A stretch of DNA of 64,000 nt, from positions 1,768,866 through 1,832,865 of the forward strand of contig NW_019217788.1 in NCBI RefSeq assembly GCF_002571385.2, in the 5' to 3' direction. Each line of letters opens with the position of its first letter. The stretch's first letter is position 1. Shown piece after piece: positions 16,475 to 61,311 of this stretch. This DNA is from Stylophora pistillata (lineage: Eukaryota). Under the pieces are notes generated by a model. It worked only from the letters and a program-made list of their open reading frames with translations. It searched no databases and was not told the origin of the DNA. Made by a program: the position numbers and the translations under genes.

Positions 16475-16510
<36 letters not shown>

Positions 16511-27514: not shown

Positions 27515-28590
27515 AGTTCAAAGCGAAGCTTGCTGGAAAGAGCGATTAAGGCACGTGCGAAAGCTCCATGATTTCTAATTAACCAGTTTATAACGTTGTT
27601 TTGATAGAGTTTGAACCGTTAGAATCAAACAAGGACTCAAAGAATTCTCCTTTGCCCCGGCAGGTGGCTGTACCCGGAGGAGTAGCATTGTGGTCAATCA
27701 AGGTCCTCAACATTCAGTGACTTGTTTGATTACAACCCATAACCTGAACTAAGATTTTCAGAAACGTTTGTAGGTTAGTTCGTAAAAACGATCAAGAAAT
27801 AGAAAAAATATTTTAGCAAATAGTTAGATTAAAACGCACTAAGGGGAGGTAAATCTCTCTTGCAAACCCTTTCCTTCGCTGGATTTGCTTTGGTTCTTAT
27901 TTATTCGCGCATATTCATCAAAAGTCTTGGAACAGGACACAAAAAAGGATACGATAAAGTTAAAACTCTCTTGCAGGAAATCAAATTTTCAAGCAACTGA
28001 ATATCATGATCTAATTAGCAAATTATGAAATTCTAGGACACAGAAACGAGACGTAACAGGCAAACAATGATCACCTTTTATCGTTGAAAGCCATCTGGAA
28101 GAACATTTTTTGATCACCACTGGAATGTATTTCAATGAATTAGGCCGCCGTCTATGGAAGGCAAGCCACTCTTTTTAGTTTTGAATACAGCTATCTCTCA
28201 ATCAGTCTAGTTTATTGTCCGTCTTGCTACACTAAAATCAGTCAAGTGCTGTCTGGAGCTGTATTTGTGGAGTAAATTTAATCCTGGCAAAGGCTCAGCG
28301 AATTTTTATTTCTTTTTAGTTAATTCAATCCTGGAAAAGGGGCGCGAAATTTTATTTCTCTTGAAGTTAACCTGCTTCACAAATGTTACAAATTTGCAGT
28401 TATGTAAGGCAGAGTTGCAAGTCAATGTTAGAAACGTTTTGAATTTTCAAACCATTTTTAAAGAAAGGAATCTGTTTTTCAGCAAAGAGAATAAAACTCT
28501 TTTCTAAATCAATACTGGATTTTAATCTTAGCACTAGAATGAGGGGGTACTTGGCGTGTCTGTGACCCTCCTTTGTAAGTCTTTTTTTTA

Positions 28591-29229
28591 AGTGCACCTA
28601 AACCCAAAAATTTTTTTTCGCTTAACGAAATAAGCTTATTTTTTGGAGTATTTCTGTGCAAAAATTTTTTAATTTGCTTAAATCTTAAATTTTCTGTGCC
28701 CAGTCAAAATACGGAAAATCGGCCGCCATCTTGCCCCACGGCCGAGTTCAAAGAGGAATGGCTCTAGCGGATAATGTGACGTCAAATCGAGAACACGAAA
28801 GTCTGCTTTTCACACATTTTCACTTGTTTGAGAAGGTTGTGGTCGATATTGTCCGAAATATGCCGACCAGGTGTGTTGTATGAGGAATGTATGAAGCGTG
28901 ATACCCTCTTGCAAATTTCGCACGTTGCTACATCCTCCTACGACACACTTAGTGGGCATATTTTCGGACAAAATCGACTACAACCTTCCCAAACAAGCGA
29001 AAATGTGTGAAATGCAGACTTTCGTGTTCTCGATTTGACGTCACATTATCCGCTAGAGCCATTCCTCTTTAAACTCGGCCGTGGGGCAAGATGGCGGCCG
29101 ATTTTCCGTATTTTGACTGGGCACAGACAATTGAGGATTTGAGCAAATAAAAAAATGTTTGCACAGAAATACTCCAAAAAATACGCTTATTTCGTTAAGC
29201 GAAAAAAAATTTTTGGGTTTAGGTGCACT
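28591..29229. mobile_element. Palindromic MITE (Kolobok-like: AG...CT termini, TTAA-type target) nested in an older repeat (about 28540-29325)
   Basis: About 240-bp near-perfect inverted repeats AGTGCACCTAAACCCAAAA... / ...TTTTGGGTTTAGGTGCACT; flanks TTTA and TTAA. Confidence 0.85.
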
Positions 29230-29465
29230 TTAAACAATCAACTACAATATTCAGGTGGCGAAAACTGATGACTACCCTTTGTTTGTCACAATGAGACCCC
29301 CCCTTTGAAAAATCTTGGCACAGCTTTTGCGCCCGGGCGCTTATTCGAGGAAATAAGGTCAATATCACAAGTTTTTCACGACCATGACTATGACTAAACA
29401 ACGTAACAAAATTTTCCTTTATTTTTTTTGCGAAATTTACTTAGTTTATTGGTGTATTAGATACC

Positions 29466-31031: not shown

Positions 31032-31414
31032 TTATAACATAACCAAAGTAAAGCGCGCGCTCTGATTGGTCAATTTAGCGTCCCCCATTTGCCCATGGGT
31101 GTACGCTGCTGACGTGAGCAAATGCAAAGACTATTTTTCCGCGCGCGCTTGTTTTTTCTGGTCACGTAAGATTTGTTAAATAAAAGGGAACTCTTTAGCT
31201 ACAATGTATCAATGTTATGTTATAAAACAAATGGTAAACACCACACCGTACACTATTGAGTTATGGATGCACTTGGGAGGTTTGCTAAGCACTCAAGAAG
31301 CTAGAGTCGCTCTCGGCTATCGCCTCGAGCGACTCTTACGCTTCTTTCTTGCTTAGCAACCTCCCGCGTACATCCATAACTCAATAGTGTACGCTGTGGT
31401 GTTTACCATTTGTT
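31032..31414. mobile_element. Non-autonomous element with subterminal inverted repeats and about 190-bp terminal hairpin (31226-31414), inserted upstream of the copy 3 coding exon
   Basis: ttataacataac / gttatgttataa inverted pair; aacaaatggtaaacaccac...gtggtgtttaccatttgtt fold-back. Absent from the homologous region of copy 2 (about 22550-22600). Confidence 0.8.
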
Positions 31415-31683: not shown

Positions 31684-34600
31684 ATGGAATTTAATCCTGA
31701 ACAACTAAACTTTTTCAAGTTCTCCTCTGTTGTACTGGATGAGTTTCCAGTTTTCCTTCGTCAAGTCTTCGTTTACATGTGGGACACTCTAGTCGCTTCT
31801 CCACCTGGCGCCCCAAAATGGGACGATAGCGTGACGGTTCTAAACAATTTCCTGGGAAGAGAAGGTGGAGCAAAGAAAGTACCAATGCTGAACAAATCCT
31901 CTAAGGAATAGGACTGCACAGCTCTTTTCAAAGCTACTCTGTTTGCGCAAACCTTTGCGAAGCCAGACGGGACTGGTGGTATGAGCACTTTGGATAAACT
32001 TTACGTCAAACCCCGTGCATTGCCACCTGGAACATTTCATTGGTCTGTTATCAGCCCCATTGGAGACTCGGCAGAGACTTACACTTTAGCACTGGACCAA
32101 CTGCGTTTGTTACGAAATACACTTTGCCATCAGGTAACTACGAGAAAGATTGACAAAGCAACCTTTGATAATTACATTGTGCTGGCAAAAGATGCCTTTA
32201 CTGCATTGGGACAAAGCACCACTAAACTCGATGAGATTGGAAACATGGGCGAGGAAGAGTTTCCTACTACAAGACTTCAAAAGCTAGAAGACGAACTGAA
32301 GAAAGAAAAAGATGCTGCCATCAAGTTTGAGCTGATCGATGAACACCTCAATAAAATCGATTCAAACGTAGAAAATGTGAGGGCTGAGGTAACTGATGTC
32401 AAGACAAGAGTACATGATGTTGGGTTAGACATGAAGGAACTGAAGTTGGAAATACAAGATGTCGGGAGAAGAATGGAAAATAATGCATCAGATATGAAGA
32501 CCGAAGTAACAGGTGTGATGACTCGAGTAGGCGATGTTGGATCAGAAATTAACGATGTTAAGACACGAGTAGAAGCAGTCTGGTCAGACATCAAAAATCT
32601 AGAAGCTCCAGTGGGGAATGTTCGCGCAGAAATGAAAGATGTTAAGACTCAAGTGGAAGATGTCGGGTCAAACGTAAAAGATATGAAGACAAGAGTAGAA
32701 GACGTAAATTCCGAAGTAAAAGATCTTTCGAAGGAGGTAAAGGTTTTGAAGACTGAGTTTGTTGACATGAAACAAGAAATGCAAGGAGAATGTTCTAGAG
32801 GTAAGCTTGAATATCAAGTCTGCCTAGATTAGTACAAACTTTCAAAACTGCGGAGCGATGGTTAAGTTACACTCAAGTAACCGTGCCGATCATCCTTTCG
32901 TCTGAATGACTGAATGCANNNNNNNNNNNNNNNNNNNNNNNNNNNNNNNNNNNNNNNNNNNNNNNNNNNNNNNNNNNNNNNNNNNNNNNNNNNNNNNNNN
33001 NNNNNNNNNNNNNNNNNNNNNNNNNNNNNNNNNNNNNNNNNNNNNNNNNNNNNNNNNNNNNNNNNNNNNNNNNNNNNNNNNNNNNNNNNNNNNNNNNNNN
33101 NNNNNNNNNNNNNNNNNNNNNNNNNNNNNNNNNNNNNNNNNNNNNNNNNNNNNNNNNNNNNNNNNNNNNNNNNNNNNNNNNNNNNNNNNNNNNNNNNNNN
33201 NNNNNNNNNNNNNNNNNNNNNNNNNNNNNNNNNNNNNNNNNNNNNNNNNNNNNNNNNNNNNNNNNNNNNNNNNNNNNNNNNNNNNNNNNNNNNNNNNNNN
33301 NNNNNNNNNNNNNNNNNNNNNNNNNNNNNNNNNNNNNNNNNNNNNNNNNNNNNNNNNNNNNNNNNNNNNNNNNNNNNNNNNNNNNNNNNNNNNNNNNNNN
33401 NNNNNNNNNNNNNNNNNNNNNNNNNNNNNNNNNNNNNNNNNNNNNNNNNNNNNNNNNNNNNNNNNNNNNNNNNNNNNNNNNNNNNNNNNNNNNNNNNNNN
33501 NNNNNNNNNNNNNNNNNNNNGGTAACTACGAGAAAGATTGACAAAGCAACCTTTGATAATTACATTGTGCTGGCAAAAGATGCCTTTACTGCATTGGGAC
33601 AAAGCACCACTAAACTCGATGAGATTGGAAACATGGGCGAGGAAGAGTTTCCTACTACAAGACTTCAAAAGCTAGAAGACGAACTGAAGAAAGAAAAAGA
33701 TGCTGCCATCAAGTTTGAGCTGATCGATGAACACCTCAATAAAATCGATTCAAACGTAGAAAATGTGAGGGCTGAGGTAACTGATGTCAAGACAAGAGTA
33801 CATGATGTTGGGTTAGACATGAAGGAACTGAAGTTGGAAATACAAGATGTCGGGAGAAGAATGGAAAATAATGCATCAGATATGAAGACCGAAGTAACAG
33901 GTGTGATGACTCGAGTAGGCGATGTTGGATCAGAAATTAACGATGTTAAGACACGAGTAGAAGCAGTCTGGTCAGACATCAAAAATCTAGAAGCTCCAGT
34001 GGGGAATGTTCGCGCAGAAATGAAAGATGTTAAGACTCAAGTGGAAGATGTCGGGTCAAACGTAAAAGATATGAAGACAAGAGTAGAAGACGTAAATTTC
34101 GAAGTAAAAAGATCTTTCGAAGGAGGTAAAGGTTTTGAAGACTGAGTTTGTTGACATGAAACAAGAAATGCAAGGAGAATGTTCTAGAGGTAAGCTTGAA
34201 TATCAAGTCTGCCTAGATTAGTACAAACTTTCAAAACTGCGGAGCGATGGTTAAGTTACACTCAAGTAACCGTGCCGATCATCCTTTCGTCTGAATGACT
34301 GAATGCAGTGAACTGAGAAGTATTTTTTACTAATTCTAGACACAGCCTTCGCGTGCCGTCAGAGGGTTTCTGAAACCTTACGACGACCTTAAGGAGGAAG
34401 GCTTTTAAATAAATTTGTGACGCAGGGAGTTCAGAAAAGCGTTTATTAAGATCGTGGTCTCAAATAAAACGGCGCAGGTCCATGTGATCCTTTAAGGCGT
34501 GAGATACCGGAGTAACTAAGTTACGAATATCTTGCCGGTTAATGCTCTCTTATATACCCTTTACTGACGATTATTGAAAGAGGCTCATATCGCATTTAAA

Positions 34601-39160: not shown

Positions 39161-40540
39161 ATGACCACCGAGCAAATGTCGAACGCGCGCGAACGAAAGA
39201 ATAGAGGTGGCCAGATTTTCGACGAAAACAGCAACGGAATAAAAGATGCGAAATTCCTGAGTCCGAATTCATCCACGAAAAGTCTCGATGTGTCCTCTGC
39301 TTCAGACAACGACTCCTGGGCCTCAGAAGATTCGTACCCAGACGAGCTACCCTCACCGCCAGTCCAGTGGAAATCGGAAATTCCCTGGACACCCGATCGC
39401 CGCAAAAGTTCTATAAAAAAACCTCAATTTCAACTCGACCCAATCGCGGTTCAGCTAAATGAATTCTACGAGAATCGTGTGAGAATAAGCTTGGAGCGTA
39501 AGGAAATCTGTGAAGAAATCGCTTACAATGCAGTGCACAAATGTTTCCGTAAAATCCAAATGGTGGATAGACGATTCCGTGCCAATAGCGTCGTTTCTCA
39601 GGGAATTCCGTACGATGGATTACAAGCTGAAGAAGCCATCCAGATGGACATGCTTGTTCAATTGTCCCCAGGAAGAAGTTCAGCCATGTACACCGCGTAC
39701 GATGAGCGGACGGGCGGAATGCGCGTGCAGCCGAGCTCCGAAGATTATGCTGTCTGGGAGGACTGCATAACAACCAATGGCTTTTTGTCGGCTGGGAAGA
39801 TCAACTCACTGCTTCGAAAGTACGTCAAGAAAGCTGTGAAGATTTTAAACTTTCACATCAAGGAGGGTCGCGCAGATAAACTGCCGAAGAATCTGAGTAG
39901 CATCTCGGTCGAGAAAGGACCTGTCATTCGATTGATCGTGAATAAAGACATATCAGTCGATATTCTACCAGCGTTTGTTATTCCCGACTCTCGCTCAGAC
40001 CCGTCTCGTAGAGATTGCCCGTCTTCGTCGCACGTGGTTTGCAAACCGCACGTTCAAAACGAGATGATCTGGCGCCTGTCATTTCACGTGGCGGAGAAAA
40101 ACCGCATACGAGCTCTCAGCGAGGGATGCCGTATACAGTTGTTACGAATCTTGACCGAAATTCGCGACAACGAGGATCAGCTGAAGAAGCTTTCATCGTA
40201 TCACGTCAAGACATTGCTGTTCCACGAATCTGACGTTTATCCGGACTTCGACGAGTGGAGCGCGGAAAAGACGTCGCGCCGTTTCTTTGGCTTGTTAGAA
40301 CGACTGAAAAAAGCCCTGAAAGAAGGAAATCTACCGCATTATTTCATGCAACCACCAGATTTTAAGCAAGTGAATTTATTCGCCGATCTCGATGGGAAAA
40401 CTCTGTCGGACATGTTAGACGTTGTAGAAGACATAATGGAAAACCCAATGGGTGTTCTTAGGACTGTGGGCCGAGAGCGAAGACAGACTATGTGGCCGTG
40501 GGAATTAGGCTTATTTTTACCTGCGGGACTAACCTCCTAA
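39161..40540 (+). CDS. Mab-21/cGAS-like receptor (cGLR) family protein, single coding exon (Mab21-2)
   Basis: 459 aa: Ser/Pro-rich N-terminal tail, SQGIPYDGLQAEEAIQMDMLVQL, WEDCITTNGFLSAGKI, ISVDILPAF, WRLSFHVAEK, LSSYHVKTLLFH, LPHYFM...VNLF. Confidence 0.92.
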   Translation: MTTEQMSNARERKNRGGQIFDENSNGIKDAKFLSPNSSTKSLDVSSASDNDSWASEDSYPDELPSPPVQWKSEIPWTPDRRKSSIKKPQFQLDPIAVQLNEFYENRVRISLERKEICEEIAYNAVHKCFRKIQMVDRRFRANSVVSQGIPYDGLQAEEAIQMDMLVQLSPGRSSAMYTAYDERTGGMRVQPSSEDYAVWEDCITTNGFLSAGKINSLLRKYVKKAVKILNFHIKEGRADKLPKNLSSISVEKGPVIRLIVNKDISVDILPAFVIPDSRSDPSRRDCPSSSHVVCKPHVQNEMIWRLSFHVAEKNRIRALSEGCRIQLLRILTEIRDNEDQLKKLSSYHVKTLLFHESDVYPDFDEWSAEKTSRRFFGLLERLKKALKEGNLPHYFMQPPDFKQVNLFADLDGKTLSDMLDVVEDIMENPMGVLRTVGRERRQTMWPWELGLFLPAGLTS

Positions 40541-42796: not shown

Positions 42797-45700
42797 TCAA
42801 ATCATGTCTGGTCTCTGAGGCATACACATGTTGTAGTGGACCTGTTGATTCCAGAAATCAGGTCCTTTCCATCCACACCACCCCTGTGACAAATAATAGG
42901 AACAACTAAATTACTGGGTATCAACAGCCTGGTCATGGACCCACCCCTTTCATAACTTCAAGCAATCCATGTCCAAGGCCACCTGTACAACAATATATGT
43001 AGCTTTGCCCAATTATCTCAGGCAGGGAGACCACTACAGCTTCAGCCAATTACAGTGGATCTTACATTAACAATGAAAAGGCCACACTCCCCCCTCTCCC
43101 CAATCCCCAGTAAACAGGCCAGACCACATCACAGTAATCTCCTGAGTGGGTTCTTTAATGTTCCATGTCTGACCAAATTAACTAATTAATAGAAGCAGGA
43201 GATGGGACATATGATTATTTGTCCTTATCCGAGAAGACTAGAATGTCTATCCATTTCTTGGTATTATAGAGAAAGGTAGCAAATTCTCCTCAGTTATTTT
43301 AAGACCTTGAGTGTTGGTCCAGCCAGGGCTGAAGCCCTCAACCTCCCACACAACAGTCCGGCGCTCTAACCAATTGAGCTTACCGATAGAATAGATTCAT
43401 TCATCACCTCACCTTGTCTAATATAACTTTGAGATCTTCTCCACCAGTGTAATGTGGATCAAGAATTAAAAACCTGTACAGAATGGAAAGAAATATGAGA
43501 ATCCACTCTTTTATAAAGGAAAATACAAGGAATACCCATGGTCCCCTTCAGTCCCCATCAAGATAGGGAAGGAATTCATGTGGAAAAACTGGGAAGCCAG
43601 TCAACAACATTTGGTGTCCTCTTGATTTTTGGAAGATTAATTATTGCCATAATCAATGCAAGGGGTAATGGTTAGATGACTGTAAAGACACAAAGATTTT
43701 TGATTCTGTTTCTCTAGCAGGTATGTTTGAGAGAAACACACTATGATATACTAATTGGAGTGGTGTATAAAAATGTAACCCTAAACCTAACCCTTGGTAG
43801 CTCCTGATAGAATGATAGATTCTCGTCTCAAATCTTTTAGTGCCTCCTACTGAAGTACAAGGAGAATTTGACTTTGTATCAAGTCACTTTAGGCTTTTTC
43901 CCCACACCCCTTCATTTCTTCAGAAAACAAACAGCATACTTCTGAGTGGTCACAGGCAAATTGCTAAGTTGACAATCTCACTAACCTTATGTCCCCTGTT
44001 TGATCATTAAAATCAACTCCTAGAATGGTGTGCGCTAAAACTCCACCTCCTGTTTGACAAAGCAAAACATAAAAAGAAAAACTCTCAAGGAGAAATTCTC
44101 AAATAAGTGTCTTAATTCTCCCATTAACCCTTCACTCCCATGAGTGACCAAGACAGAATTTCTCCTTACAATATCAAAACAATATTGAGTAGACAAGTGA
44201 TGAGAACAAACAAAAACGTCAGTAAGGGGATTATTAGTTGATTCAGTACCAAATTCTCCAAAGTAATATCATAGGAACTGTATGACAGATAGTAAGGAGA
44301 GTTACTGATGACATCTGACAGCAAAAGGGTTACAACAACATACCAATCATAATAGGAGTTCCTTGAGTCTGAAAATGATGCAACAGGTCTCGTCCTTTGG
44401 TGCGCATTTCTGCTCCAGTGCTGACAAACATGATCTTCGATGTGACTCCCAAAAGATGTTCCAGACACATGCTGACTTCAAAGGAGCCTATCCACTGCCG
44501 AGAACCCACAAACTCTTTGCCTTTGTCTTGGAGATCAACAAGTGCTTGTTGAATTTCATGATGGCTCGGGACTGGCTTGGATGTGTAGCCTTGGTGAGCA
44601 AACCAGGAAGCGATGGTCTGAAGTGATCGATATGCACAACCCCACCCCTGAACAGAACAAGAATATTGTATCAGTCACTAATAATAAAAATCCTATTATT
44701 CATAAGAGGAACTTCTGCTGAAGGGACACCACTGGCACGACAAAGAGTGTTGCCCGAAAAGAGGTGTCCCTTAAATGAAGGAAACAAATTCAAAGGTTAA
44801 TGGTCAGGGGTATTTGTCAGGTGCAACGAAAGTCTGTGTCCTGTGAAAGGCAGTGATCCCTGAATTCAAACATTTCCCTTCACAGTATAACTATTAGTGA
44901 TTAACAAACAGAAAGGTCGTCTGAATAAAGGAAAAGTTTGCTAACTAAAGAAACTTAAGCTTGTTAAGCAAATTCTCCTTGTTTGTATTATAAAAAATGT
45001 AGAGAGAACAGTATGAAGAACATGCATACGAATGTAAGGGTTTGCGAGAATTTCCATTACATTCAGGTGTTTTCATATCCCAAAGTTTGTGGCTCATGTT
45101 TGCAGTCTTGTTATATTGGAGCCACATGAGACTGAACAAGTTTCATCATACAACTCTGTGCCTCTAAAATTTTTCAGAGGAGCAACCTACCAGCCATCAA
45201 CCAAGCCCCCTCCCCCCTCCCCCCTCCCTGAAAAACTCTCATCTGGAAGTCCTGATTTAGATACATACATCATCATTGAAGTTATCCTGCATGTAATGGT
45301 GGTAGGAATATGTTCCATCAACAACTGCTACTGTGCCACAAACCCCTGAAAATCAAAAGAAAGTGATAAAAGACTTTTTCAATCAATGTACTCTGATGAA
45401 ACAGTTTAAACTCCACTGTGTGACTGGGATATAATTTCTCCTTACCTTATCAATACAATATCAAGCAGACAAGTGATGAGAATAAAGAAAAATACAAATT
45501 TGGGGAGCAGAAGTTGATCCATATGAAATTCTCCAAGTTAAGATCATAAAAATTGTCTGAATGGCAGACAGTATTAAAAGTAATTTACAAATGAGATCTT
45601 GAGAGCAAAAGGGTCAATAAAAAGTAATCAATCTAACTGAGCATACCTCCTACCAATCCAGTGTGAGGATTTGTTAAGTAGATACCTGTAACAGATTGAA

Positions 45701-48700: not shown

Positions 48701-51700
48701 GGCACTTTTCTGTTTTCCTTTACTCTTGCCTGATCCATGCATGCTTTGCAGTTTTTCTTGTCCTAATTCAATCCTTGCCAGAAGTGATTCACAGCTTTCT
48801 GATTCATCGCTTCCATGATCCACATTTTTAAGCAACAGTTTACAGTCTTTTATGTGGAAGGCAGTTGACGTGGAATCTAACTCTTTGCAAGTCTTTTCAA
48901 TATTGTTTGTAATTTCTGATGTATCTGTTGGAAAAAAAAGAACTAGATTGTCACATATCTTTCAAATATCCTGATAACTTTGTTTCTGTTTTTATCTTGC
49001 GTAGGGTTAGGATTTTTCAACTGTTCAGTTGTTCATATATCAGGACATTTTAAGTTTGCATGTACTCCATTCTCTATTTCAGAAGTTCTATGTTAAATTT
49101 AATTTAATCGAGTTTGCTTGATTTAGAGTTCTGTTCACTATGATGGGAACAATCATGGTAAGTAATGACAGAGCTTGAAATGATGGGCCCATCAACAGAT
49201 AAAGCCCAGTCAAATGTGGGTTTTGTTTGATTACCTGTAAATTCCTTTTTATATTTCTTCCAGTTGTTTACATCCTCGAAGACCCAGGGGCTGAGTCGAT
49301 TTCAAGTTAGGGCATGAAGAGCCCCTGGGGACATTGTCTTACAAGACTAGTTGCAAACGGTCGCAGTCGTTCTGCCATCTGATTGGTGCCAGAAAATCTT
49401 TGTGTTTTTCTGCCCTATCAGAGTGAAGTGTACTTTAGAAACCCTTCGTGTGTTTTAACACAGACATATATGCAAGTAGCTCAGTTGCTCGCTATGATTG
49501 TTTGGACCGTGCGACGGAGATTTGCTTGAGGTGAAAAGTTTCAGTCTCAGCACACAATGTAAGAGAGATCGATCAGATTGTCCGCGAAAATTTTACCGGA
49601 AATTATACTGAATACTTTCGCAGGTATCACGNNNNNNNNNNNNNNNNNNNNNNTCCGAGGATGAGTTGTTTACAAAATAATTGTTACAATACTGGAATGT
49701 GGAATGCTCAAGATTTATATATAGAATGTTTAGTGTATCGCCAAGTAAGTTTAGCTTTTGTGGAATAAAAGTTTGGTACTCTAAAAGACTGTAAGGCAGA
49801 GAAGCATGAGGAAATAATAATGGGAAGAAGAATTCAATTCTGAACAGAGCTCAGGTTTTAAACACTTTTCCTGCATTGAGTTTGAAACTACTTGTATAAC
49901 AAAAGCACCATCATGGTAAATATAGGAGGGGGGAGGGATTTACTGAGTTCTGACTTAATGGCTATTAGTCCTGTCAAAAACAGTTTTGTCCAGTGCCAAC
50001 TGGAGATTGTTTCACACCTTAAATGGCAACATTTTTACTGTCCCCTATTGAGTTATTAAAATAATTGTGATGTCACAAATGCTTTGCATTAACAAGGGAC
50101 GTTTAGCCATCTTGAGAACATACCATTTTGATCCTTGGAGACAGATAGAGGTATGCTTGCTTGAACTCGAAAGCAAATCCTCTTTTCTAGAAATTCTCCC
50201 TGGATACTTGCTTCTTGCCACTCACACTCAGATACTGATTCAAGATCCTTGTTGTAGATAAAACACCTTTTTCTTTCACCATCACTGGTATTAACATGCT
50301 GTAAAACCACTAGAGAATTGTTGGTTACTGAAGCATCCTGTGAAATAAGAAAAGTCTACATGTAAATATGTAAGATACTATAATATTATACCTTTTACTC
50401 TGGCAAATGACCAACATATTAAGTCCCTTACAAATAAACTGACCCTTTAAACGAGCATCAGTTTGCATATCCTCTATACTGTTCTCTATGCATTTCCTAG
50501 GGTTCTGTCAAAGAGAATTTGTTTAATAATAAAGAGCTTCTTTAGTTGTTGATTATTTCCTTTATTCTCATTAACTTAATGTTTAATTCAGGGTAACAAC
50601 GTAAGGAGAACTTAGATCCCAGTGATCCTTACATGTTTACATTTCTAAATTGAGTTCTAGAAAATATGCTTAGAGATTTACAATCTCACCTTTAAAAATG
50701 TTCCATTAAATATTTTTTTAAGCTCACAGGGTTCAAGATTTGTAGGTTTAACACAAGAATAATGAATTCCAACCAGACGTATCCCTAAAAGAGAAAAGAA
50801 TCAGGAAAATTAATACTACAATGATAACATCGATCTTTATTTTTCCTTGTTAAAATAAAAGTTACATACTATCAGTCAATGCAAATCTAAAAAGGTATTA
50901 ATAGTAAAATAATCCTAAATACCTAAATAATATTATTATCCAACTGTGCTTGGTAGAATACAAATAATGCGCAAATTGAGTACAAAGTATTTGTACCCCA
51001 GACAACCAGTTAGAAATTTGCTTGCACTGAAATAACAATTTGGCATGTAGGTAGGATAATAAATCTCTGATTAAACATTTTGTTGTGTTACTCATTGTAT
51101 TAGTTTAACTCACCCTATAGGCTCATCAAAAAAGAGCACAACTCATAAAAATACTCAAAACATTTAATAAGATATATATACTCAATAATTACAAAATAAC
51201 AAAGAAGATTATTACTATAAACAATAAAATAAGAGGAGGGAGCACTGCTTGGTGGAAGGATTCAAGAAAGAATTGAAAGGACTTGGATATATATTATAAA
51301 TACTTGTGGGAGATTTTATTCAGGAAAGATCTTATGCATGTCAAGAGAGGAATTATGCTAGTTCCATTCATTTTTATTTCAAATTTTTATTTTTTTCAGT
51401 AACTCCCAAAAAGAGGATGGTATCTCATTTTATAGTCTGGCGCTAATTCTTGAGAAGACAATTTTTGGTACCTCACGCTTTGAGTTTTGTGTAGAAAGTA
51501 CAATTTATATTAATTTTATTGAGACATTTCCTTATTACTAACAGACAGTGGAGCTTCACCAAGAACAGAGAGACAGACTGTCAAACAATAGACGACGTGA
51601 TAAATGACTGGTTGGCTGGCTGGATGAATAGAAGGGATGAGGGATGAATAGTTGGAGACATGATAGAATGGGTTAATGAACCAATGGAAAAGACTGAAAA

Positions 51701-52486
51701 GAGGTCAATAAAAAGTGGGATAAGAGAAAAATTTAAACAGAAAGACCAACAGACCGACAGACTGATGGACAGACATTCAAATGAACAGACAGACAGATAA
51801 ATGGATTACCCAAAAGGTGAAAAAAATTAATGATTTGGATAAGACTAACAGAATATTTAAGCATTACATAAGACAGAAAGAGTTCCATATAACCCCATAC
51901 ATTAATTATGCATTCCATTTCATAAAGACTCACTATAAAATTAAGGTTTCTTGGCAACACTCTGTGCATAATTAATGTAAGTGGTTATATGGAACTCTTG
52001 CCCTTAAGACCCCTAGAATAAAAAAAGTTGACTTGTGTTACAAATATTAATTTAAAGGAAAATACGTTCTTGTCTTTGTGCAACTATAGGCAATAGAATA
52101 TCACATGAAGATAAATTTAAGACTTATGTACAAACCGTTGGGGATAAGAGAATATAATTCTGATTTCTCATTTTTCCAGTCAGGGACTGCTGGATACCCT
52201 GTCTTAGCGGGTGGATGACTTTCTGTACAAGCTGCACAACCAATTATGTGAATTTTATTTGGGAACACCTCGCCAAAAACATATCCAAGAAAATTGTCGT
52301 CTTTTCCTTCCTCTAGGTTCTTCGTTCGTTGAAGCAATGTCTTGAAAAATAAAATATACCAGATATTTATCTCATTGAGTAAATTATGTCATGCCAGCTA
52401 TACTTATTGAAAAAAGTAAGGAAAGCAGATATTTTTACCTGTTTTATTGAATAATCGATAAAAACCTGCATGTTCTCGTCCTCCAT
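42797..52486 (-). CDS. UFSP2: Ufm1-specific protease 2 (peptidase C78), about 15 exons (e.g. 52439-52486, about 52135-52341, about 50690-50784, about 50125-50337, about 48697-48925, about 48467-48554, about 47793-47944, about 47065-47185, about 46661-46762, 45647-45685, 45269-45345, 44344-44647, 43986-44049, 43413-43473, 42797-42883)
   Basis: Spliced translation gives [27 protein letters not shown]...[13 protein letters not shown]...[17 protein letters not shown]...[10 protein letters not shown]...[11 protein letters not shown]...YNMCMPQRP. Catalytic Cys and the DPH box are intact. Confidence 0.93.
44125..44315. mobile_element. piggyBac-like MITE family (TTAA-CCCT ends); other copies at about 45405-45617, 47560-47663, 50440-50630, 58100-58301, 59334-59540, 62560-62820, 63530-63740
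   Basis: Recurring ttaaccct...gaccaagacagaatttctcctt...agacaagtgatgaga...aaattctcc...agggttaa pattern. Confidence 0.7.
46058..46290 (-). mobile_element. Penelope/retrozyme-like repeat carrying a decayed hammerhead motif; copies at 55588-55681 and about 62125-62440
   Basis: Near-identical tttggatatatcaacaaagttgaaatggtaaattggccaccgtaac.attacaaaagctgacgtttcgagcgttagccctt at 46058 and 55588; longer homology with 62125-62330. Confidence 0.7.
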
Positions 52487-52737
52487 GTTTTCTTATGGAG
52501 CCCGCAGCACTAATATCTGCGGTTTCCACCCTAACCATCATAGTGCTCATGGAAGTGCTCATGTAATTGTTGCGTTGTTAAAGATTACTTCTTATTGTGT
52601 CCTACTGTGATGCTCTGTGTGATGATCAAAGCGTTTCTCTTGAACAAAGCTTGTTTTACCGTCCCTAAACACCTAAAATTACCACAGGAACTAGTACTAA
52701 AGGGGTATTACGTCTACTGAATCTTTATGGAAAGCTT

Positions 52738-54258
52738 ATGGAATCAAAACGTCGTTGGAATTTTTTTCTATTTTTCTTTAGCATCGGAAAACTCGCGGAT
52801 ATCCGCAGACTTGACTCCAGACTGGTCCCAACGATTCATTTGTGTCGTCCTTTAAAAAACATTTCATCAGCAATACACGCTACTGAAAACTTTGCAGGGA
52901 GAGAGTCCTCATCTCGTCCGTTTTCTCATCCAAAGAAAAAGAACGTGATACTAAGAACTATTCTCGGTCATTTCTTGTCCATTGGCCATGAGCCAAATAC
53001 GTTCCCCGAAATATATAAAGTCGAAACTGAAAGAGTTGGTGGTTCTTGGAAAATGAAGGAAGACAGTGACTCAATTGAGGAGATTAGGAACGTTGAGCAG
53101 ATGATAAGAGGCGATCAAATGACAGATGTCAATAAAAGTAGCTATTCTGCCAACCAGAGTGGTGGTATTACCCATCAAGAACAAGATGTTGAAAATCATC
53201 AGCGTCATGGTGAAAATATGAATACTTTGGAACAATTTGGGGGATTTTTGGAGTCACCATCTAGACAAGAAACACACAGCTTTATCTGTCCTGGTGGTAA
53301 TGATGTGGAGTACACCAATTCATCTACAATGAACGCTGAGAGATCTGAATCCTCTCAGAGTCTTACAAATAAAAAAGAAACTGATGAAAGTCCTGATATT
53401 AAACCACTTGTCTTGGATACTCCCTTTGATCCAAAGCCAGAGAGTGCACTTGACAATGCAGAATGGACAATTGTGAACAGAGCAAAATACGAACAAAGAA
53501 TGGGAGACAAACGGAAGGAGAAACCTCAGCTGAATGCATCATTAGAAGATGGCAAATCAGATGCTGCTGGTACATGTGTGAATGGAGACAATGGACTCTT
53601 TTCCCCAAGAAACAAGAGGCCTAAAAGGATACAACCAAACTTTTTCTTGGCTGTGCGCATTCATAATCCTCAGATACACACTGGTATCAAGGTTATCCAA
53701 GACTCTATTGCCACACACAATAAGAAACTTAAGCCTGCCTTTGTCTCCTTGGCGACATTGCATGTTACCCTAATGGTCATGCACCTTGAGGATGCTAAGG
53801 AAATTGAGAAAGCAGGAAGAATATTGCATCAGTGCAAGACATCTTTGGAACCCATCCTAGCCAAAAGTGCAATGATGCTAAGATTTTCTGGTCTTGGCCA
53901 CTTTCGACAACAAGTTCTCTATGCAAAACTTGAGGAAGAGGGAAGAGACTTTTTGAAATCAGTTGCGGAAATTTTGCGAGAAATATTTACAAAAGAAGGC
54001 ATCCCTTCCACTGATTCTCGAGAGTACAATCCTCACATGACTGTCATGAAATTAACAGGCCATAACCCACAGTTGAGGAGGAATGGGGTGAAGAAAATCC
54101 CAGAGGAGAGTTATTCAAGCTGGGTTGATTTGAATTTTGGGGAAGAGCAAGTGACAGCTTTGCACTTATGTGCAATGGGTGAGAAAGATAGAGATGGATT
54201 TTATAAGTGTATGGCAACAGTGACATTTGGTGACTCAGATAAAACATCTTTCAGTTGA
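52738..54258 (+). CDS. AKAP7-like 2H phosphoesterase (2',5'-phosphodiesterase fold) with long disordered N-terminus and basic NLS; intronless; true start could be a downstream ATG
   Basis: PRNKRPKRIQPNFFLAVRI, then two HxT motifs (LHVTL, PHMTV), F.GLGHF..QVLYAK, LHLCAM......GFY. No C-terminal PKA-anchoring helix is evident. Confidence 0.9.
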   Translation: MESKRRWNFFLFFFSIGKLADIRRLDSRLVPTIHLCRPLKNISSAIHATENFAGRESSSRPFSHPKKKNVILRTILGHFLSIGHEPNTFPEIYKVETERVGGSWKMKEDSDSIEEIRNVEQMIRGDQMTDVNKSSYSANQSGGITHQEQDVENHQRHGENMNTLEQFGGFLESPSRQETHSFICPGGNDVEYTNSSTMNAERSESSQSLTNKKETDESPDIKPLVLDTPFDPKPESALDNAEWTIVNRAKYEQRMGDKRKEKPQLNASLEDGKSDAAGTCVNGDNGLFSPRNKRPKRIQPNFFLAVRIHNPQIHTGIKVIQDSIATHNKKLKPAFVSLATLHVTLMVMHLEDAKEIEKAGRILHQCKTSLEPILAKSAMMLRFSGLGHFRQQVLYAKLEEEGRDFLKSVAEILREIFTKEGIPSTDSREYNPHMTVMKLTGHNPQLRRNGVKKIPEESYSSWVDLNFGEEQVTALHLCAMGEKDRDGFYKCMATVTFGDSDKTSFS

Positions 54259-55820
54259 ACAGAGAAAGAACACAGTCAGTGACATCAAAGGGAAGTCTAT
54301 GGAACACAAAATATCCTTGGCCAAAATTTGAACTATGATCTCACCATCTAGATTACAGCATGCTTGCTCAGTAGGCCTCCATGTCTGCCAAAGAGTAAAA
54401 TAGTTAAAAAAAAGGGATTCCATCAGTGCTCCAAAATTTTTTCAGTTATATGTCCTTGTAAATATTACTTTTACTCTCAAGGTTGTGCTTTTTTAAGTAC
54501 ACTATTTTAAAAATAAGCACGTACAGGAAGTGTAATTCAATACACATCAAAGAAGTCACACCAGATCACAAATCGTTCATTTTTTTCCTTTTATGGAGTG
54601 ATTCTTTTTTACCAAATTTCATTATTGAAATATTTAAGAGAAATAATAATAAAAGGTCTTAGATAAAAATAAGGATTATCACAATTGTAAGTCTGAGACT
54701 GTACTAGTTCAATTTTAGGAAGTCACTGAAATAGAACCTGCAATGAGCCAAGTTTAACACAAAAAGGATATTTGATAAAACTATGTGTGGTGAAGACTTA
54801 GCCAATATTAAAAAACATTTACCAAAGGGAATTTCAGAAAATCTGGAGTCAATTCTACATATTTTGTCAGGCTGATGTCACAAAAATCTGAAAAACATTC
54901 ACATGCTTTATGTTTTTGTCCTCATGCAAACACACATACCAGCCAAAAAACATGTGTTCATTCATTACTGCAAACACGTTTGCACACAAACCATTTTGAA
55001 TCATCAAGGGCATCTGGTCTAAAACTCTTAGGAACCTCCTAACTTGGATTATTTGTTTTCAGTTACTTGAGCTCATTCAATTCCTACCAAAGCACAAAAA
55101 TCTGAGCAACACAAATTAAAAACAAAATATTGTGAAAACCTGAAGTGAAACGAAAAAAAATCATTACCTTTTTTTAAACCAAAATCAATAAGTTATTTCT
55201 CCACAGTTGCAGATACGACTCACTCGAATGTAACTAGACACACCAAAAAATTGACCCTCTCCAATATTATTGATAAAGTAACACGTGTGTAAAGAAGGCT
55301 CTCATTCGTTTTATTTACTGACAATGAAACACGTTGATAATGATTAAAATATGGGTGAAATATAAATAGATTTAGCTCTCCATTCCTAAACAATCTTCTC
55401 TATAACCCTACACTAAAAACAGTTTATTGCAGGAGTTTTTCACTTAGGGTTTATTTAGGATAGGATAAACATCACTCGGGACTAGCCAGCATAACATATT
55501 TGATGGAAAAATTTGAGCAAAGTTTGAAAAGTGTGGAAAACTACAAAACTGCTCTCACCCCATAGCGGAGCAACTGATAAGGATTTAATTTGGATATATC
55601 AACAAAGTTGAAATGGTAAATTGGCCACCGTAACGATTACAAAAGCTGACGTTTCGAGCGTTAGCCCTTCGTTGGAGCGAATGATAAGGATTTAGCTGAC
55701 GACGAAGATATTGATGACACATACTACATGACACATTCTACATGACACACGGAGCAAAACTCCATAAAAAGCCCATCAGGACCTATCGGCGATTCTCAAA
55801 CTTGTATCATCAAGATTTAC

Positions 55821-56135
55821 CAGGGTTAGTACCCTTTTTCAGAGACAAATTTCAAGGAATTTTCCAGGACTTTTCCAGGCTCAGAATGATCTTTCCAGGA
55901 CTCCAAATTTCACCTTTAACCCCGTTTCATTCACAAGATTTCAAAATCAATACTCCTCTTTACGGTCTACACACATTTCTTTTAACGTAAATTTTGAAAC
56001 TTTATTGAATGATTTTAGCAAATTTCCAGGACTAATCCAGACCCTGTAGTCTTTTTCCAGGACTTCCCAGTCCTGGAAAGTCTCAAAAGAAAATTCCAGG
56101 ACTTTCCAGGTTTTCTAGGACCCGTTCGTACCCTG
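55821..56135. mobile_element. hAT5-like MITE with CAGGGT termini, 5-bp TSD (TTTAC) and internal TTCCAGGAC repeats
   Basis: TTTAC|CAGGGTT ... ACCCTG|TTTAC; many ttccaggac units inside. Confidence 0.7.
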
Positions 56136-56815
56136 TTTACCAACGGTCAACGGAATACTATAAAATAAACAAGATCAAGTAGATCAGTCCCGTTTCTAAA
56201 CGCTTTCCTACCGGTGGAGACCCAACTAAATTAAATCCCACTCAAAACGAAAATAGAAGCTGTCCGCCACCCTTTTCGCACCCTATATTATTTGTCACAC
56301 TCATTTAAAACACGTACTCGTTTAATTCAATTGGCACGGAGGGATCAGAAATAATCTGGATCAACCGAAAGTACAAATGAGTTTAATTTCTTCGTCACAT
56401 GTGCTTGAACGATAACTCGATCAGTTTTTTGTGTTAGCGCATAAACACATGTTACGTCATGTTTGTTAGCCAATCAGCGGTTTTTCAGCCGCGTTACTCC
56501 AGACTGACCTTAAAGGTTCAAATCGTTTTCAGTTGATTGTGTGCGGTCAGCCACCTGAAGAGCAAGATCACAAGCAGTCCTCCTTTTCGGTGAAATCCTT
56601 TGCGCGAGGTAAAAAAATTAGTGAAAAATAATCTGCTGTTAGCGCAGATATTTGCGTTGAGCGCAATGCATAATGCAAACTCTTGGACTTTGTCTCTACT
56701 AGTGCCTCACTCGTGGAACACGTGGGGCACATCACTGATTTTCCACGACTCACACGCGACGGACTTAGCCGAAAAGGAGGAACTACTCAAAACTTATCAT
56801 CATTGTGGTTAAGGT

Positions 56816-57451
56816 ATGAGTACTAGCCCAAAAGCAAGAACATTTTTCGTGGCTCTGCGCATTTCTAACCCTCAGATATATGACTGTATCAAGAAAATCC
56901 AAGATTCCATCGCCGCACACGATCAGAATCTAAAAGGACGTCCCTTGGCGAAATTGCACGTTACCCTAATGTTCATGTATCTTGAAGGTGCAGAGGAAAT
57001 TGCCAAAGCAGAAAGAATACTGCTGAATCAATGCAAGACAGCATTGGAACCCATGTTTTCCAAAAGGCCCACGACGCTTAGGTTTAAGGGCCTTGACCAC
57101 TTTTCAGATGCACATCCCCCGGTAATCTACGCAAATCTTGAACAAGAGGGAAGAGACTTTTTGAAATTAGTTAATAAAACTGTGAGTGAAATTTTCACTA
57201 AAGAAGGCATCCCTCCCAAAGATTCACCAGAGTTCATTCCTCACATGACTGTTATGAAATCAAAAAGGTATAATGGAGAAATCTCCAACGAGAGCTACAA
57301 AAGCTTTGTCGAATGTTGTATGGGAGAACAACCATTGACAAAGCTAACTTTGCACCTATGTCCAGCAAATGGTGAGACAGAAGCAGATGGGTTTTACAAG
57401 AGTATGGCAACAATGACCCTTGGTGACCCAGATGAAACATATTCCAGTTGA
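56816..57451 (+). CDS. Second AKAP7-like 2H phosphoesterase, catalytic domain only (tandem duplicate)
   Basis: 211 aa colinear with the C-terminal domain of 52738-54258. LHVTL and PHMTV are intact, and the 3' flanks are also homologous. Confidence 0.88.
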   Translation: MSTSPKARTFFVALRISNPQIYDCIKKIQDSIAAHDQNLKGRPLAKLHVTLMFMYLEGAEEIAKAERILLNQCKTALEPMFSKRPTTLRFKGLDHFSDAHPPVIYANLEQEGRDFLKLVNKTVSEIFTKEGIPPKDSPEFIPHMTVMKSKRYNGEISNESYKSFVECCMGEQPLTKLTLHLCPANGETEADGFYKSMATMTLGDPDETYSS

Positions 57452-59618
57452 ATAGGAAAATATAAGAACAAAGGGATGAGAACGCATCAACTCACATCAC
57501 ACTAACCTTGGCTAGAGAACAACATGCTGGTCATGTCTGCGATAGGATGCTCTAGAATAGTCCAAAAAATAATGGGATTCCTTCAGTAATGCGAAAATTC
57601 GTATTTTTAGTTATAAATCCTTGTAATTTTATCTTTAATCTTAATGATGGCATTAAATTAGGAAGTTCATTAGTCGTTAAATTTTAAGCATTTAGTCAGT
57701 AATTTTTACATCGAATTTTTAACTGCAAAAATGCTCATGTATGCTTTGGTCTGTTTTTTTTTTAAATGTAAATATGGTGCCTGAAAAAGCATCACTTAAG
57801 CTTGTTGAGAGACAAAATGGTTTGCCAAATCCTTAAAAGTTCTTTTCTTGATTTTTCTCATTTCACCACCTGTCAATCACCTGTTGGTTACCTGTCTGGT
57901 CTGTTGATTTAGCTGGATAGGTTTTAAATAACTTTGAGAGTTTAAAATGTTTTTTTTTCATTAAATAATATTGTAAAAAGTAGGTTAGATATCCTTCTCT
58001 TTCATATTGTAAAGCACCGAAAGGCTTGTGATAAGTGCTATGTAAATTTTACATATTGCTATATATGTGATTTTTGTTATATAACACTTTTTTGACCATT
58101 TAACCCTTGGACTGACTAGCATCTAATTTCCTTTTAAAACATCACTCCTGAATCAAAATTTAAGGTCAGAAGAATATAGAAAATAATCACGAACCAAAGA
58201 AGCTCTTGATTGTTAAACAAATTCTCCTTATCAGCACCATAGGAAATGTATAGAGAACAGTATGGAGAATATGCATGCAGATGTTAGGATGTAAAGGGTA
58301 AGACTGTGCACGAACAGGAAGCATAACACATCAAAGAGTTCACACCAAACTGTTTTTTTCCCAATAACAAACTGATTCTGTGTAATCACATTTCCTTGTA
58401 GAACCAATAAATGTCCAAGAGAAAAAGGAAGATTACCACTGACATCTATGCTGCTTTAGTTCAATTTTTGTGAAGTCCCATTTCTCTGAAATAGAACCTG
58501 CAAACAGATTTTTGTTAAACTTTACCTATGCACTGTTCATCTCACAGGAATGTTAATTCAGAGGCAATATATATGAGTGGCTGATCTAGACCTTGAGCTA
58601 AAGGAGGGGGGGGGGCACCTGGTTTTTGTGTGTGTACATGTGCCAGCTCTTCTTCCTTCTTCATTTTTTTCCCCAAATTGGGTGGGGTCCTGGCCCCTCT
58701 CCTTGATCTGCCACTGTACATACCTTGTAGATATCCATACAGTCCTAAAATAACAATTATTTTTTTGTATTTGCCAATTTAATGTTTCCAAAAATTGTTC
58801 CTTTTATATCTACACTGAAAAGTGTTTTATATTTATTTCTCCCTAATGACTGAGAGCTTAGAACCATCTAGCCCAGTTGCCTTATGACAATCCTATCATA
58901 TTCTAGGCAAATAAAATATAAGTTGTATTTTCAACTGAAAAAATTTTTCTTCTTGTTTAGTATCCAGTAAATGAAACCAAGGACAAATTTTCAAATTTAA
59001 ACACCATAAATAATTTTTTTTGTAGTTTTTACAAACTTCTTTTGGCTGTTGATGGTCAGTGGTCCGCTGAAATCAGTTGTTAGTCAGTTATCAAATATAT
59101 AAATCTGTTTCATAATTGGTGAATAGTCGGCCAAAATTCTACTACCAAATAGTTGCTTGTCAAGTAACTCACAATCAGCACTGTATTGATGTTTTTGGGT
59201 ATTTATGGTTGGCCAACATTTCATGCGACAATGGCTAGCAATCAGTTAAGTGTTGGTCACCTATTGCCTGACTCTCACTCAGTCATAAGCCAACAATCAG
59301 TTAATGATTCCCTGACTACTGTATAACTTTTGGTTAACCCTACCATTACTGACCAAGACAGAATTTCTCCTTAAAATATCGCTAAAATGTCAAGCAAACA
59401 AGTGATGAGATTAAAAAAAATATATCAATCAGGGGATTGGTAGTTGATCCAATACTAAATTCTCTAAACTAACATCATAAAAATTGTATAGTAAACAGTT
59501 AGGAGAATTATCGATGAGATTTTGGGAGTGGAAGTGCTAATTATGAAGCTACTTTTGACCTAGTATCAACTAAGATATGGATCAAACATTCATCTCTCAG
59601 CACACATGATCTGAATAA

Positions 59619-61031
59619 TTAACACCAATTTAAATATGACAAGATTTCCTTAGGGACATCATGTTGCCGTAGGCTTTGTACAACACAGTATTTCTTTATT
59701 GTCATGCGGCAAAGAACCCTTAACTCAGCAGGGGAGTCATTCATTTTGTAAACCAACAGATTGGAGACATCTTGGCTTCGATCTTCAATGTTCACATTAC
59801 AACAGTGAGTGACCAGGAGCTGATGTCCATTCGGAGAAATTGCACAACTTGTATAATTGTCTGTTCCCTTGCTGTGATCCATTCGCAAAAGTTCTTCAGA
59901 ATCAAATTCAGCCTCGCCCTTTGAAAGGTTGATTTGATGCTTCAAAAAGACTGAAAGTTGTCTCTTGTTGGAGTCAGTTCCACTTTGAGGAATCACAATA
60001 TAGTTATCATGGGGCGATAGAAAGAACTCATACACTGAAGATGCCAAATGTCCTTCAATGCTCACTTTCTGCAGAAGATTGCCATAAGTGTCCCAAATCA
60101 ACACTGACTTGCAGTCTTCAAAATCCATCGCTGCCCGATTTTCATTATTTGAGGGCAATTTTATTCGCTGACCACTACACAGTGCAAGAAAGAAATTTCC
60201 ACTTTGGGAATATTTCGCATCAGCTACAAAGTGATAGCCTTTTAGCTGTGTCTCTGCAGTAACTTTGAGCGACTCCACGTCGATAAAAACCAAACCAATG
60301 AAAAACACATAGGAACCCCTCCCTGTGATGGCTATGCTCTTCTGATCAGGGCTAAAATCTAGCAACTTCCATGAGAATGGATGATTCATTAACTCCATTT
60401 CACTACTTCTGATATGACGAACACAATGGATTTGAAAACAATTCGACTCTGCTGATCTCTTTTCTTCGACAGTCATTTCCAACAAAATGAATTGCCCGCC
60501 GTTTAAAATCGCACCAAGCCAGTAGCCACCATTCCGCAACGCTGATACTTTCATGAGGTTGATGCTACCTCCCCAGTGAAAATTATTACTATTTTGTCGC
60601 TGACACTTGTCCAATATCAGTTCCATTTCTTTGAGAAGGTTTCCATCTTTGCAATCTGTATCAGGGCATGAGAACACAAGAACACAAATTCGAAAATCTT
60701 CTAAACGAGCGAAAACGTTCAACAGTGGACAATCGAAAGTCGCAGTTAAATCGCAAAAGATTTCAAGCACAGCGCAAGGAAAGACCAAATTACAGCAAAA
60801 TTCACTTTCAATGTTTGCACTTAGTAAGTTCAGAAATTTTAAACTGACGTCGACTCGTCTAGTAGCTCCTGGTGAAAAATCATCTTCCAGTCGATCCGTG
60901 GTGCGAACTATAACTGCAAGGTTGATATCTTCGCGTGTTATCCAAGCAACTTTGTCGTTGGTTTTGAAGTAAAAAGGTACCTGTGCTTCAGTGAGAAGTT
61001 TTAGTGTTCCTTCGTCCCCGCTGTCCTCCAT
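59619..61031 (-). CDS. Intronless WD40-like beta-propeller protein with C-terminal SOCS box
   Basis: 470 aa; blade motifs FSPDQKSIA, YSQSGNFF, LSPHDNYI, CAISPNGHQLLV; C-terminus PAELRVLCRMTIKKY...VPKEILSYL fits a BC-box/cullin-box. Confidence 0.75.
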   Translation of the reverse strand: MEDSGDEGTLKLLTEAQVPFYFKTNDKVAWITREDINLAVIVRTTDRLEDDFSPGATRRVDVSLKFLNLLSANIESEFCCNLVFPCAVLEIFCDLTATFDCPLLNVFARLEDFRICVLVFSCPDTDCKDGNLLKEMELILDKCQRQNSNNFHWGGSINLMKVSALRNGGYWLGAILNGGQFILLEMTVEEKRSAESNCFQIHCVRHIRSSEMELMNHPFSWKLLDFSPDQKSIAITGRGSYVFFIGLVFIDVESLKVTAETQLKGYHFVADAKYSQSGNFFLALCSGQRIKLPSNNENRAAMDFEDCKSVLIWDTYGNLLQKVSIEGHLASSVYEFFLSPHDNYIVIPQSGTDSNKRQLSVFLKHQINLSKGEAEFDSEELLRMDHSKGTDNYTSCAISPNGHQLLVTHCCNVNIEDRSQDVSNLLVYKMNDSPAELRVLCRMTIKKYCVVQSLRQHDVPKEILSYLNWC

Positions 61032-61311
61032 GTTCGATCACACAAAACACGTCACGCCAACTATCAATTTCTAAATTGTGAAAAAATGTTCTCCACCTGC
61101 TTCCATACTTGGGACGTTTTACCTTAATATTGCGACATCGAAAAAGAAATGTTTCAACAAAATTACAACTGGTTGCGAACGACCAATACAGCATTCGGGA
61201 AATTGTAACATAATTCTTGGTTACACTATTACGCAATGCTTTGCATGACGGTGACCGTGATGGTCACGCAAACATTACAACTTCGCTCCCAGGGTCTTTT
61301 GCCTCCCCAAG

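Follow-up and report, generated by a model that had tools for sequence, protein, structure and literature searches.

Within a 64,000-nucleotide stretch of the Stylophora pistillata genome (contig NW_019217788.1, positions 1,768,866 to 1,832,865 of the forward strand; hereafter the window, numbered from its first letter), we analyzed two neighbouring genes for AKAP7-like phosphodiesterases (PDE), PDE-1 and PDE-2. PDE-1 is a full-type gene with a putative nuclear localisation signal (NLS), and PDE-2 is an expressed, lineage-specific, truncated duplicate; this duplicate, together with a recurrent pattern of similar short copies in other animals, is what is new here, the enzyme family itself being known. 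As to function, the activity of the mouse and oyster AKAP7 proteins and the location of the bare domain in mouse make cleavage of linear 2',5'-phosphodiester bonds the likeliest role of PDE-2, and we give about an even chance to its being a freely diffusing enzyme of this kind with a reshaped groove. The argument turns on the following features of the two genes:

52738..54258, plus strand: PDE-1 coding sequence, a single exon of 506 amino acids, covered by unspliced contigs
53608..53628, plus strand: PDE-1 basic patch RNKRPKR, a putative monopartite NLS directly before the domain
53635..54228, plus strand: PDE-1 AKAP7-type two-histidine (2H) domain, from the Pfam match and the tree alignment
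53761-53769 and 54034-54042, plus strand: PDE-1 HxT motifs
54019-54021, plus strand: conserved Arg428 of PDE-1
54052-54099, plus strand: PDE-1 basic loop
56816..57451, plus strand: PDE-2 coding sequence, a single exon of 211 amino acids
56957-56965 and 57242-57250, plus strand: PDE-2 HxT motifs (His48/Thr50 and His143/Thr145), invariant in the alignment
57227-57229, plus strand: Pro138 of PDE-2, replacing the conserved Arg
57260-57283, plus strand: shortened loop of PDE-2

An earlier note on this DNA had proposed that these genes form a tandem pair, and this is borne out: both are intronless open reading frames (ORFs) on the same strand, and both match PF10469 (AKAP7_NLS) above the curated cut-off of 24.4 bits (PDE-1, E 2e-44, 152 bits; PDE-2, E 1.4e-30, 107 bits). 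PDE-1 consists of a long low-complexity N-terminal part followed by the basic patch, which lies directly before the domain as had been described, and by the 2H domain itself. Of 70 full-type homologue rows, 59 have a comparable patch, and by analogy with mouse AKAP7 it would act as an NLS. PDE-2 likewise corresponds to its earlier description, as it has no basic patch and a changed basic loop and keeps both HxT motifs. A scan for K(K/R)x(K/R) gave no match in PDE-2 or in its closest counterpart P0004, a protein of 209 amino acids represented by one contig that is 65% identical to PDE-2, has the same first five residues and the same indels, and probably comes from a different species. The C-termini of PDE-1 and PDE-2 extend about nine residues past the domain end, and no Pfam family of the protein kinase A (PKA) regulatory-subunit-binding helix was matched in either at E 0.1. 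A family search of the 398-Mb genome gave, besides this pair, only a spliced gene with an added AAA-type domain on C72 and spliced KH-PDE-like exons on C7 (presumably LENG9-like and ASCC1, respectively), so that PDE-1 is the sole full AKAP7-like gene found.

PDE-2 is transcribed, its lack of expression having been named beforehand as a possible refutation. Eight sequencing runs were aligned to the region, five of them, from five studies, being informative for PDE-2 (X1, X10, X11, X13 and X6); in all five, contigs start at 56522-56654 and span the whole ORF unspliced, together with the donor-like site at its ATG. X10, X11 and X13 are on record as RNA, and the type of X1 and X6 was guessed. X1, X10, X11 and X13 behave as RNA, since the intron of the neighbouring gene is spliced out in them (4/4) and their depth in the intronic bin 51234-51600 is zero. 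X15, whose kind is not known, covers PDE-1 and leaves most of PDE-2 uncovered; such holes prove nothing, this run holding 0.71 of the words of the region. Contigs of X23 and X24 lie on neither PDE gene at the 80% identity threshold and are uninformative. The donor-like site, for which the PDE-2 start had been considered uncertain, does exist in the DNA, but it is used by no contig among the joints listed, and the doubt is largely dispelled by the unspliced contigs of five runs, by an in-frame TAA 3 nt upstream of the ATG and by the identical start of P0004. An upstream exon supplying PDE-2 with an NLS was also considered and is rejected, as none of the joints listed for these contigs enters or leaves the start; in one X10 contig the 23 letters at the 5' extremity, within a repeat, are unaligned. 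This repeat-derived leader, which carries two upstream ATGs, contains:

56578..56781, no strand assigned: dispersed element resembling a miniature inverted-repeat transposable element (MITE), with 27-nt imperfect inverted arms that are 81% complementary
56666..56812, plus strand: in-frame upstream ORF of 48 codons with its stop 3 nt before the PDE-2 ATG; the second upstream ATG is at 56673

Most other genomic matches of the leader (24/26) fall on this element, both arms being present in L029, and of the five PDE-2 contigs, four contain the upstream ORF in their 5' parts and one has it at its edge.

Regarding its origin, the coding homology between PDE-2 and PDE-1 begins at the domain edge (56843 and 53641, respectively), with 71% DNA identity over 649 columns, and homology is found again in the 3' flanks:

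54380..54743, plus strand: blocks of the PDE-1 3' untranslated region (UTR) matching the PDE-2 3' flank, with AATAAA in both (54648 / 58406)
57532..58503, plus strand: PDE-2 3' flank, three blocks matching the PDE-1 3' UTR, set apart by unrelated sequence (about 650 nt) including a repeat

The two flank matches already noted score 62 and 48, each equalled by 0/200 shuffles, and a third collinear block joins 54508-54682 to 58299-58439 (0/300 shuffles). No homology was detected between the 5' flanks, where 74/200 and 88/200 shuffles equalled the score, or past the PDE-1 3' UTR (182/300 and 145/300). The flank homology is thus real, but it does not prove a duplication at the DNA level as had been claimed, the blocks lying inside the transcribed 3' UTR of PDE-1, whose contigs extend 3' to 54796-55332. 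Since the blocks stop at 54743 within this UTR and the parent is intronless, a 5'-truncated retrocopy would fit them equally. We favour a tandem DNA duplication, since PDE-2 has the same orientation, lies 2.5 kb downstream and has no poly(A) tract behind its flank. Of the named proteins, P0091 of Pocillopora damicornis is nearest. In a quick tree of 72 rows, and also in one of 20 rows, P0004 pairs with PDE-2 on a long stem, inside a group with PDE-1 and Pocillopora (support 100). Within this group, none of six constrained topologies was rejected by the approximately unbiased (AU) test (p 0.058-0.75, 5000 replicates), and a metagenome scan for the genomic loci of the relatives confirmed 0 of 116 pattern matches.

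Divergence since then has been one-sided. With P0008 as outgroup, 52 amino-acid changes fall on the PDE-2 line and 7 on that of PDE-1, 26 being ambiguous, and the dN/dS comparison between paralogues suggested in the earlier note gives a pairwise dN of 0.26 and dS of 0.53 (ratio 0.49, 0.31-0.75; 196 codons). The PDE-2 frame is intact across six in-frame indels; simulated neutral copies, with substitutions only, were stop-free in 8/1000 cases at distance 0.26 and in 45/1000 at 0.15. When columns are classified by 35 de-duplicated homologues, PDE-2 retains 48 of 66 family-invariant and 25 of 48 variable columns (p 0.03), and between PDE-2 and P0004 the corresponding values are 53/66 and 26/48 (p 0.004). 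A frame kept through six indels despite fast change indicates that PDE-2 was under selection, and rapid change on one side agrees better with an altered or lost function than with a mere compartment split. A nuclear/cytoplasmic division of labour had been proposed in the earlier note, beside a substrate shift; in its pure form PDE-1 would be nuclear and PDE-2 cytoplasmic, both acting on the same substrate with the same kinetics. A basic patch is indeed present in PDE-1 and missing from PDE-2 and P0004, and mouse offers a precedent: full-length AKAP7 is nuclear, its bare domain, which rescues an ns2-mutant virus, is found in the cytoplasm or in both compartments, and a natural NLS-less cytoplasmic isoform was speculated upon (PMC4161237, with which the statements made beforehand on the nuclear form and RNase L, and on the NLS-less domain replacing ns2, agree). 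However, the NLS-less mouse domain resides in both compartments in macrophages (PMC4161237), the 52 against 7 changes far exceed what loss of an NLS requires, the short copies P0179, P0200 and P0201 described below keep the patch, and the location of PDE-1 is only predicted, its relatives having a conserved basic, acid-poor N-terminus. We consider a pure split improbable.

The changes would bear on the substrate groove. The predicted PDE-2 model (pLDDT 91, pTM 0.86) superposes on human and rat AKAP18 with template modelling (TM) scores of 0.80-0.83, the best match being 5jj2 (TM 0.83), and on viral enzymes with lower ones (mouse hepatitis virus (MHV) ns2, 0.58; rotavirus VP3-CTD, 0.46; predicted viral models, at most 0.66). 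The label "viral-style" given to PDE-2 does not hold, the predicted fold being that of AKAP7, and the viral likeness is an analogy at most; judging from the model, PDE-2 appears to retain the whole AKAP7 fold, with no minimisation as in the rotavirus domains. Its free termini are about 7 (N-terminal) and 9 (C-terminal) residues long, the last six C-terminal ones being of low confidence. The sequence nevertheless suggests a reshaped groove, since the basic loop is lost, three residues are inserted and, in S. pistillata, Pro replaces Arg near the second His. We take the conserved Arg before that His to have a nucleotide-stacking role, and an altered substrate preference of PDE-2 is likely.

The remodelled groove loops and accelerated rate would also suit a switch of PDE-2 to cyclic dinucleotides, by which it would end cGLR-STING signals inside the cell. 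Changes in the 2H core can determine substrate (10.1101/2025.08.21.671373), a pocilloporid coral, which produces 3'3'-cUA and 2'3'-cGAMP, has an expanded set of 42 cGLRs and 7 STINGs (10.1101/2023.02.22.529553), and two Mab-21 genes lie in the window, 16 and 48 kb off. Yet mouse AKAP7 leaves 2'3'-cGAMP uncut (PMC8406329, a main-text statement on its Table S4), known enzymes of this type use a terminal lid (10.1101/2025.08.21.671373) and the PDE-2 termini are short, although terminal lids in 2H models are often poorly predicted (same source). Among structural matches an Acb1-named viral model comes only at rank 28 (TM 0.45), and the proximity of Mab-21 genes means little since cGLR genes are many. 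We regard this switch as quite unlikely. A non-catalytic PDE-2, binding nucleotides or proteins as an AMP sensor or scaffold, has been proposed for the mammalian domain, the AKAP18 domain being reported to bind USP4 and to be a possible AMP sensor (PMC12221368); here it would have to explain why PDE-2 and P0004, which have lost surface basic residues, still carry both HxT motifs, and we find it highly improbable.

The 2',5'-nuclease reading can be put as a sequence of steps. PDE-2 is a 5'-truncated copy that starts at the domain edge, has lost the basic patch and the long N-terminus, and has a new ATG behind the repeat-derived leader. If it shares the catalysis of its family, it would act free of metal through the two histidines and leave 2',3'-cyclic phosphate ends. 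A protein of 24 kDa with no NLS could diffuse through cytoplasm and nucleoplasm and there weaken the 2'-5' signals possibly sensed by RNase-L-like proteins. Candidate partners of such a pathway in the genome are:

L012:2427-6137, L013:2060-5938 and L015:2088-5528: ankyrin-kinase-KEN genes; a fourth candidate is L008
L022:720-6459 (G000:C82), minus strand: OAS-like locus, two OAS1_C-matching exons downstream of an exon with two MATH domains

The former are single-exon ORFs of 1146-1292 codons resembling RNase L (three of the four long ORFs scanned). A search of the genome for OAS at E 0.001 was empty; at E 10, one of five candidates was OAS-like and the other four showed nothing alike, and no paralogue of this locus turned up, these exon-by-exon searches not being exhaustive. 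Its putative catalytic exon reads GA and E-x-E, an atypical nucleotidyltransferase motif in place of the usual GS and D-x-D, and the locus is possibly a MATH-OAS fusion. In Nematostella, homologues of RNase L and OAS are induced by cGAMP (PMC8713801).

Several points weigh against a working 2',5'-nuclease: (i) an enzyme may be inactive despite intact HxT motifs (PMC10835031), and the activity, protein and location of PDE-2 remain predicted, (ii) the source of 2',5'-oligoadenylate (2-5A) is uncertain because the sole OAS-like locus found has an atypical motif, (iii) the two upstream ATGs may suppress translation, (iv) if dS divides evenly, the ratio on the PDE-2 branch is near 0.9, (v) 18 of the 66 family-invariant columns are altered, and among eight full-length PDE-2 alleles L51P and F193L (2 each) fall at invariant columns, (vi) P0077 and P0078 (5 contigs each) look like a probable allele split at codon 72, and (vii) S. 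pistillata PDE-2 has Pro at the position of Arg428, a residue that P0004 and 57 of 70 full-type rows retain. The constraint on PDE-2 thus appears relaxed at present, as in an immune-type gene under birth and death.

These observations lend themselves to another explanation, in which PDE-2 was once useful and is now dispensable or inactive in S. pistillata, a transcribed duplicate turning into a pseudogene. The variants at invariant sites, the probable split allele, the loss of the Arg only in S. pistillata and the upstream ORFs all fit it, as do six segregating amino-acid variants in PDE-2 versus two in the PDE-1 domain (8 alleles each). A related family of truncated AKAP7-like copies, with about 200 members, is moreover incomplete in 43/43 seen (P0112-P0116, P0137-P0174); it has six derived residues in common with PDE-2 and P0004 versus one with Pocillopora PDE-1, and is grouped with PDE-2 on 31 rows (bootstrap 91) and placed otherwise in the 20-row tree. 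Its sequences point to a probable pseudogene of a related coral, possibly a dead PDE-2 orthologue. The family is widespread, with several distinct breaks near the second catalytic motif. On the other side, 9 of the 11 members of the PDE-2 protein cluster are full length, the frame survives six indels, invariant columns are preferentially retained and the predicted model is confident. We judge decay unlikely, if a serious contender.

The bare architecture is not unique to PDE-2. From a deep homologue search, with 150 of the 489 matches considered, we took the 22 best by coral profile and 15 short ones picked by eye, and these include two further groups of short (179-281 aa), long-branch proteins, each nested with a different full-length parent: P0177/P0200/P0201 with P0033, and P0117/P0179/P0218, probably one cluster as their longest contigs are equally long, with P0070. 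AU tests on 31 rows reject joining either group with PDE-2 (p 0.001 and 0.009), the two groups with each other (0.042) and all three (0.005). The basic loop is shortened in five of these six copies, the second Thr is lost in two and the basic patch is retained in three (P0179, P0200, P0201); some may be partial gene calls. Together with near-bare proteins of other invertebrates, such as a starfish, these independent groups indicate a recurrent architecture, and related animals appear, from the sequences, to have gained short copies on several occasions. The literature searched, with incomplete coverage, gave no report on coral or cnidarian AKAP7 paralogues. Another relative, P0175 (760 aa), consists of three AKAP7-like domains in tandem and ends in a hydrophobic tail. 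As a rather unlikely extension, one may speculate that short, fast-evolving AKAP7 copies with remodelled substrate loops keep arising in corals and related animals, in parallel with RNA viruses, as host off-switches adjusted to the expanded nucleotide messengers of cnidarian cGLR- or OAS-like immunity, PDE-2 being an AKAP7-derived intracellular nuclease for cyclic dinucleotides or non-canonical 2'-5' messengers.

The remaining features of the window concern the 5' end of PDE-1 and the neighbourhood:

52622..52720, plus strand: out-of-frame upstream ORF of 32 codons, with a match to residues 1-16 of P0006, a relative of 532 aa
7183-8502 and 39161-40540: two Mab-21 genes for cGLR-type nucleotidyltransferases, each a single ORF, 48 and 16 kb away
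50689-52570, minus strand: spliced gene head-to-head with PDE-1, starting within a few hundred bases of it; probably the peptidase C78 (UFSP-type) gene that has an exon at 44330-44674
10435-36496: three tandem NLR-like genes, each with a HEPN-like/coiled-coil N-terminal part, a NACHT/AAA ATPase and TPR repeats
32919-33520 (approximately): assembly gap with a 787-nt duplicated flank
59619-61037, minus strand: single-exon ORF of 470 aa with a weak beta-propeller match, transcribed in X1, X10, X11 and X13
16362-16530, 28583-29237, 31226-31414 and 51878-51999: long palindromes, 72-90% self-complementary, probably foldback or MITE-type repeats

The longer N-terminus of the P0006 type is frameshifted in S. 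pistillata PDE-1, the contigs having no indel at 52622..52720, and two upstream ORFs in other frames lie before or across the PDE-1 start (52622-52855). A mitochondrial presequence was considered for the PDE-1 relatives, whose first 50 residues hold 4-14 K/R and 1-5 D/E (25 proteins), and was set aside, as this composition is not discriminating (non-coding frames give 5.6 K/R and 3.0 D/E). The C-terminus of the 59619-61037 ORF resembles what we take to be a SOCS box.

A parent and daughter at 60% identity, with one-sided divergence and independent parallels, form a small test set for the loops that set substrate choice in 2H enzymes, and the pair is useful for asking how cnidarians terminate nucleotide immune signals. 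If PDE-2 merely repeats AKAP7 chemistry, or decays, it is an ordinary lineage-specific duplicate.

Among known systems, the closest is the central domain of mammalian AKAP7/AKAP18 gamma/delta (PF10469; 5jj2, 2vfk), with which the coral proteins have the fold and the two HxT motifs in common, PDE-1 also having a similar basic loop and, ahead of the domain, a basic patch. Unlike the mammalian proteins, both coral genes are single-exon and have no detected PKA-RII-binding domain; PDE-2 lacks the basic patch, the basic loop and the Arg before the second His, and its bare domain has a gene of its own instead of coming from alternative splicing. Without metal, mouse AKAP7 cleaves each of the four 2'-5' homopentamers and leaves 3'-5' ones intact (PMC8406329), and the AKAP7-like 2H enzyme of the oyster Crassostrea gigas, likened to PDE-2 by its reported activity, is an invertebrate case that is equally metal-free and 2',5'-specific; the role of 2-5A-cleaving enzymes in invertebrates, this one included, is stated in that report to be unknown. 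The 2',5'-PDEs of viruses (MHV ns2, rotavirus VP3-CTD, torovirus pp1a and NS4b of Middle East respiratory syndrome (MERS) coronavirus) resemble PDE-2 in having a 2H fold without the host N-terminal NLS region, although MERS NS4b has an NLS of its own and rotavirus PDE domains measure only 115-142 aa (PMC10835031). Their likeness to PDE-2 is low (TM 0.43-0.66, 12-19% identity), and since PDE-2 nests with PDE-1 and Pocillopora it descends from its neighbour and not from a virus. Acb1 and the poxvirus cGAMP phosphodiesterases have the 2H catalytic core in common with PDE-2, but they need a terminal lid, cut cyclic substrates (10.1101/2025.08.21.671373) and match it weakly in structure. Finally, XP_022111502.1 of the starfish Acanthaster planci (209 aa) is, like PDE-2, a near-bare domain without the basic loop, but it sits on a separate deep branch and, as far as tested, is no recent tandem copy, whereas PDE-2 lies beside its full-type relative.

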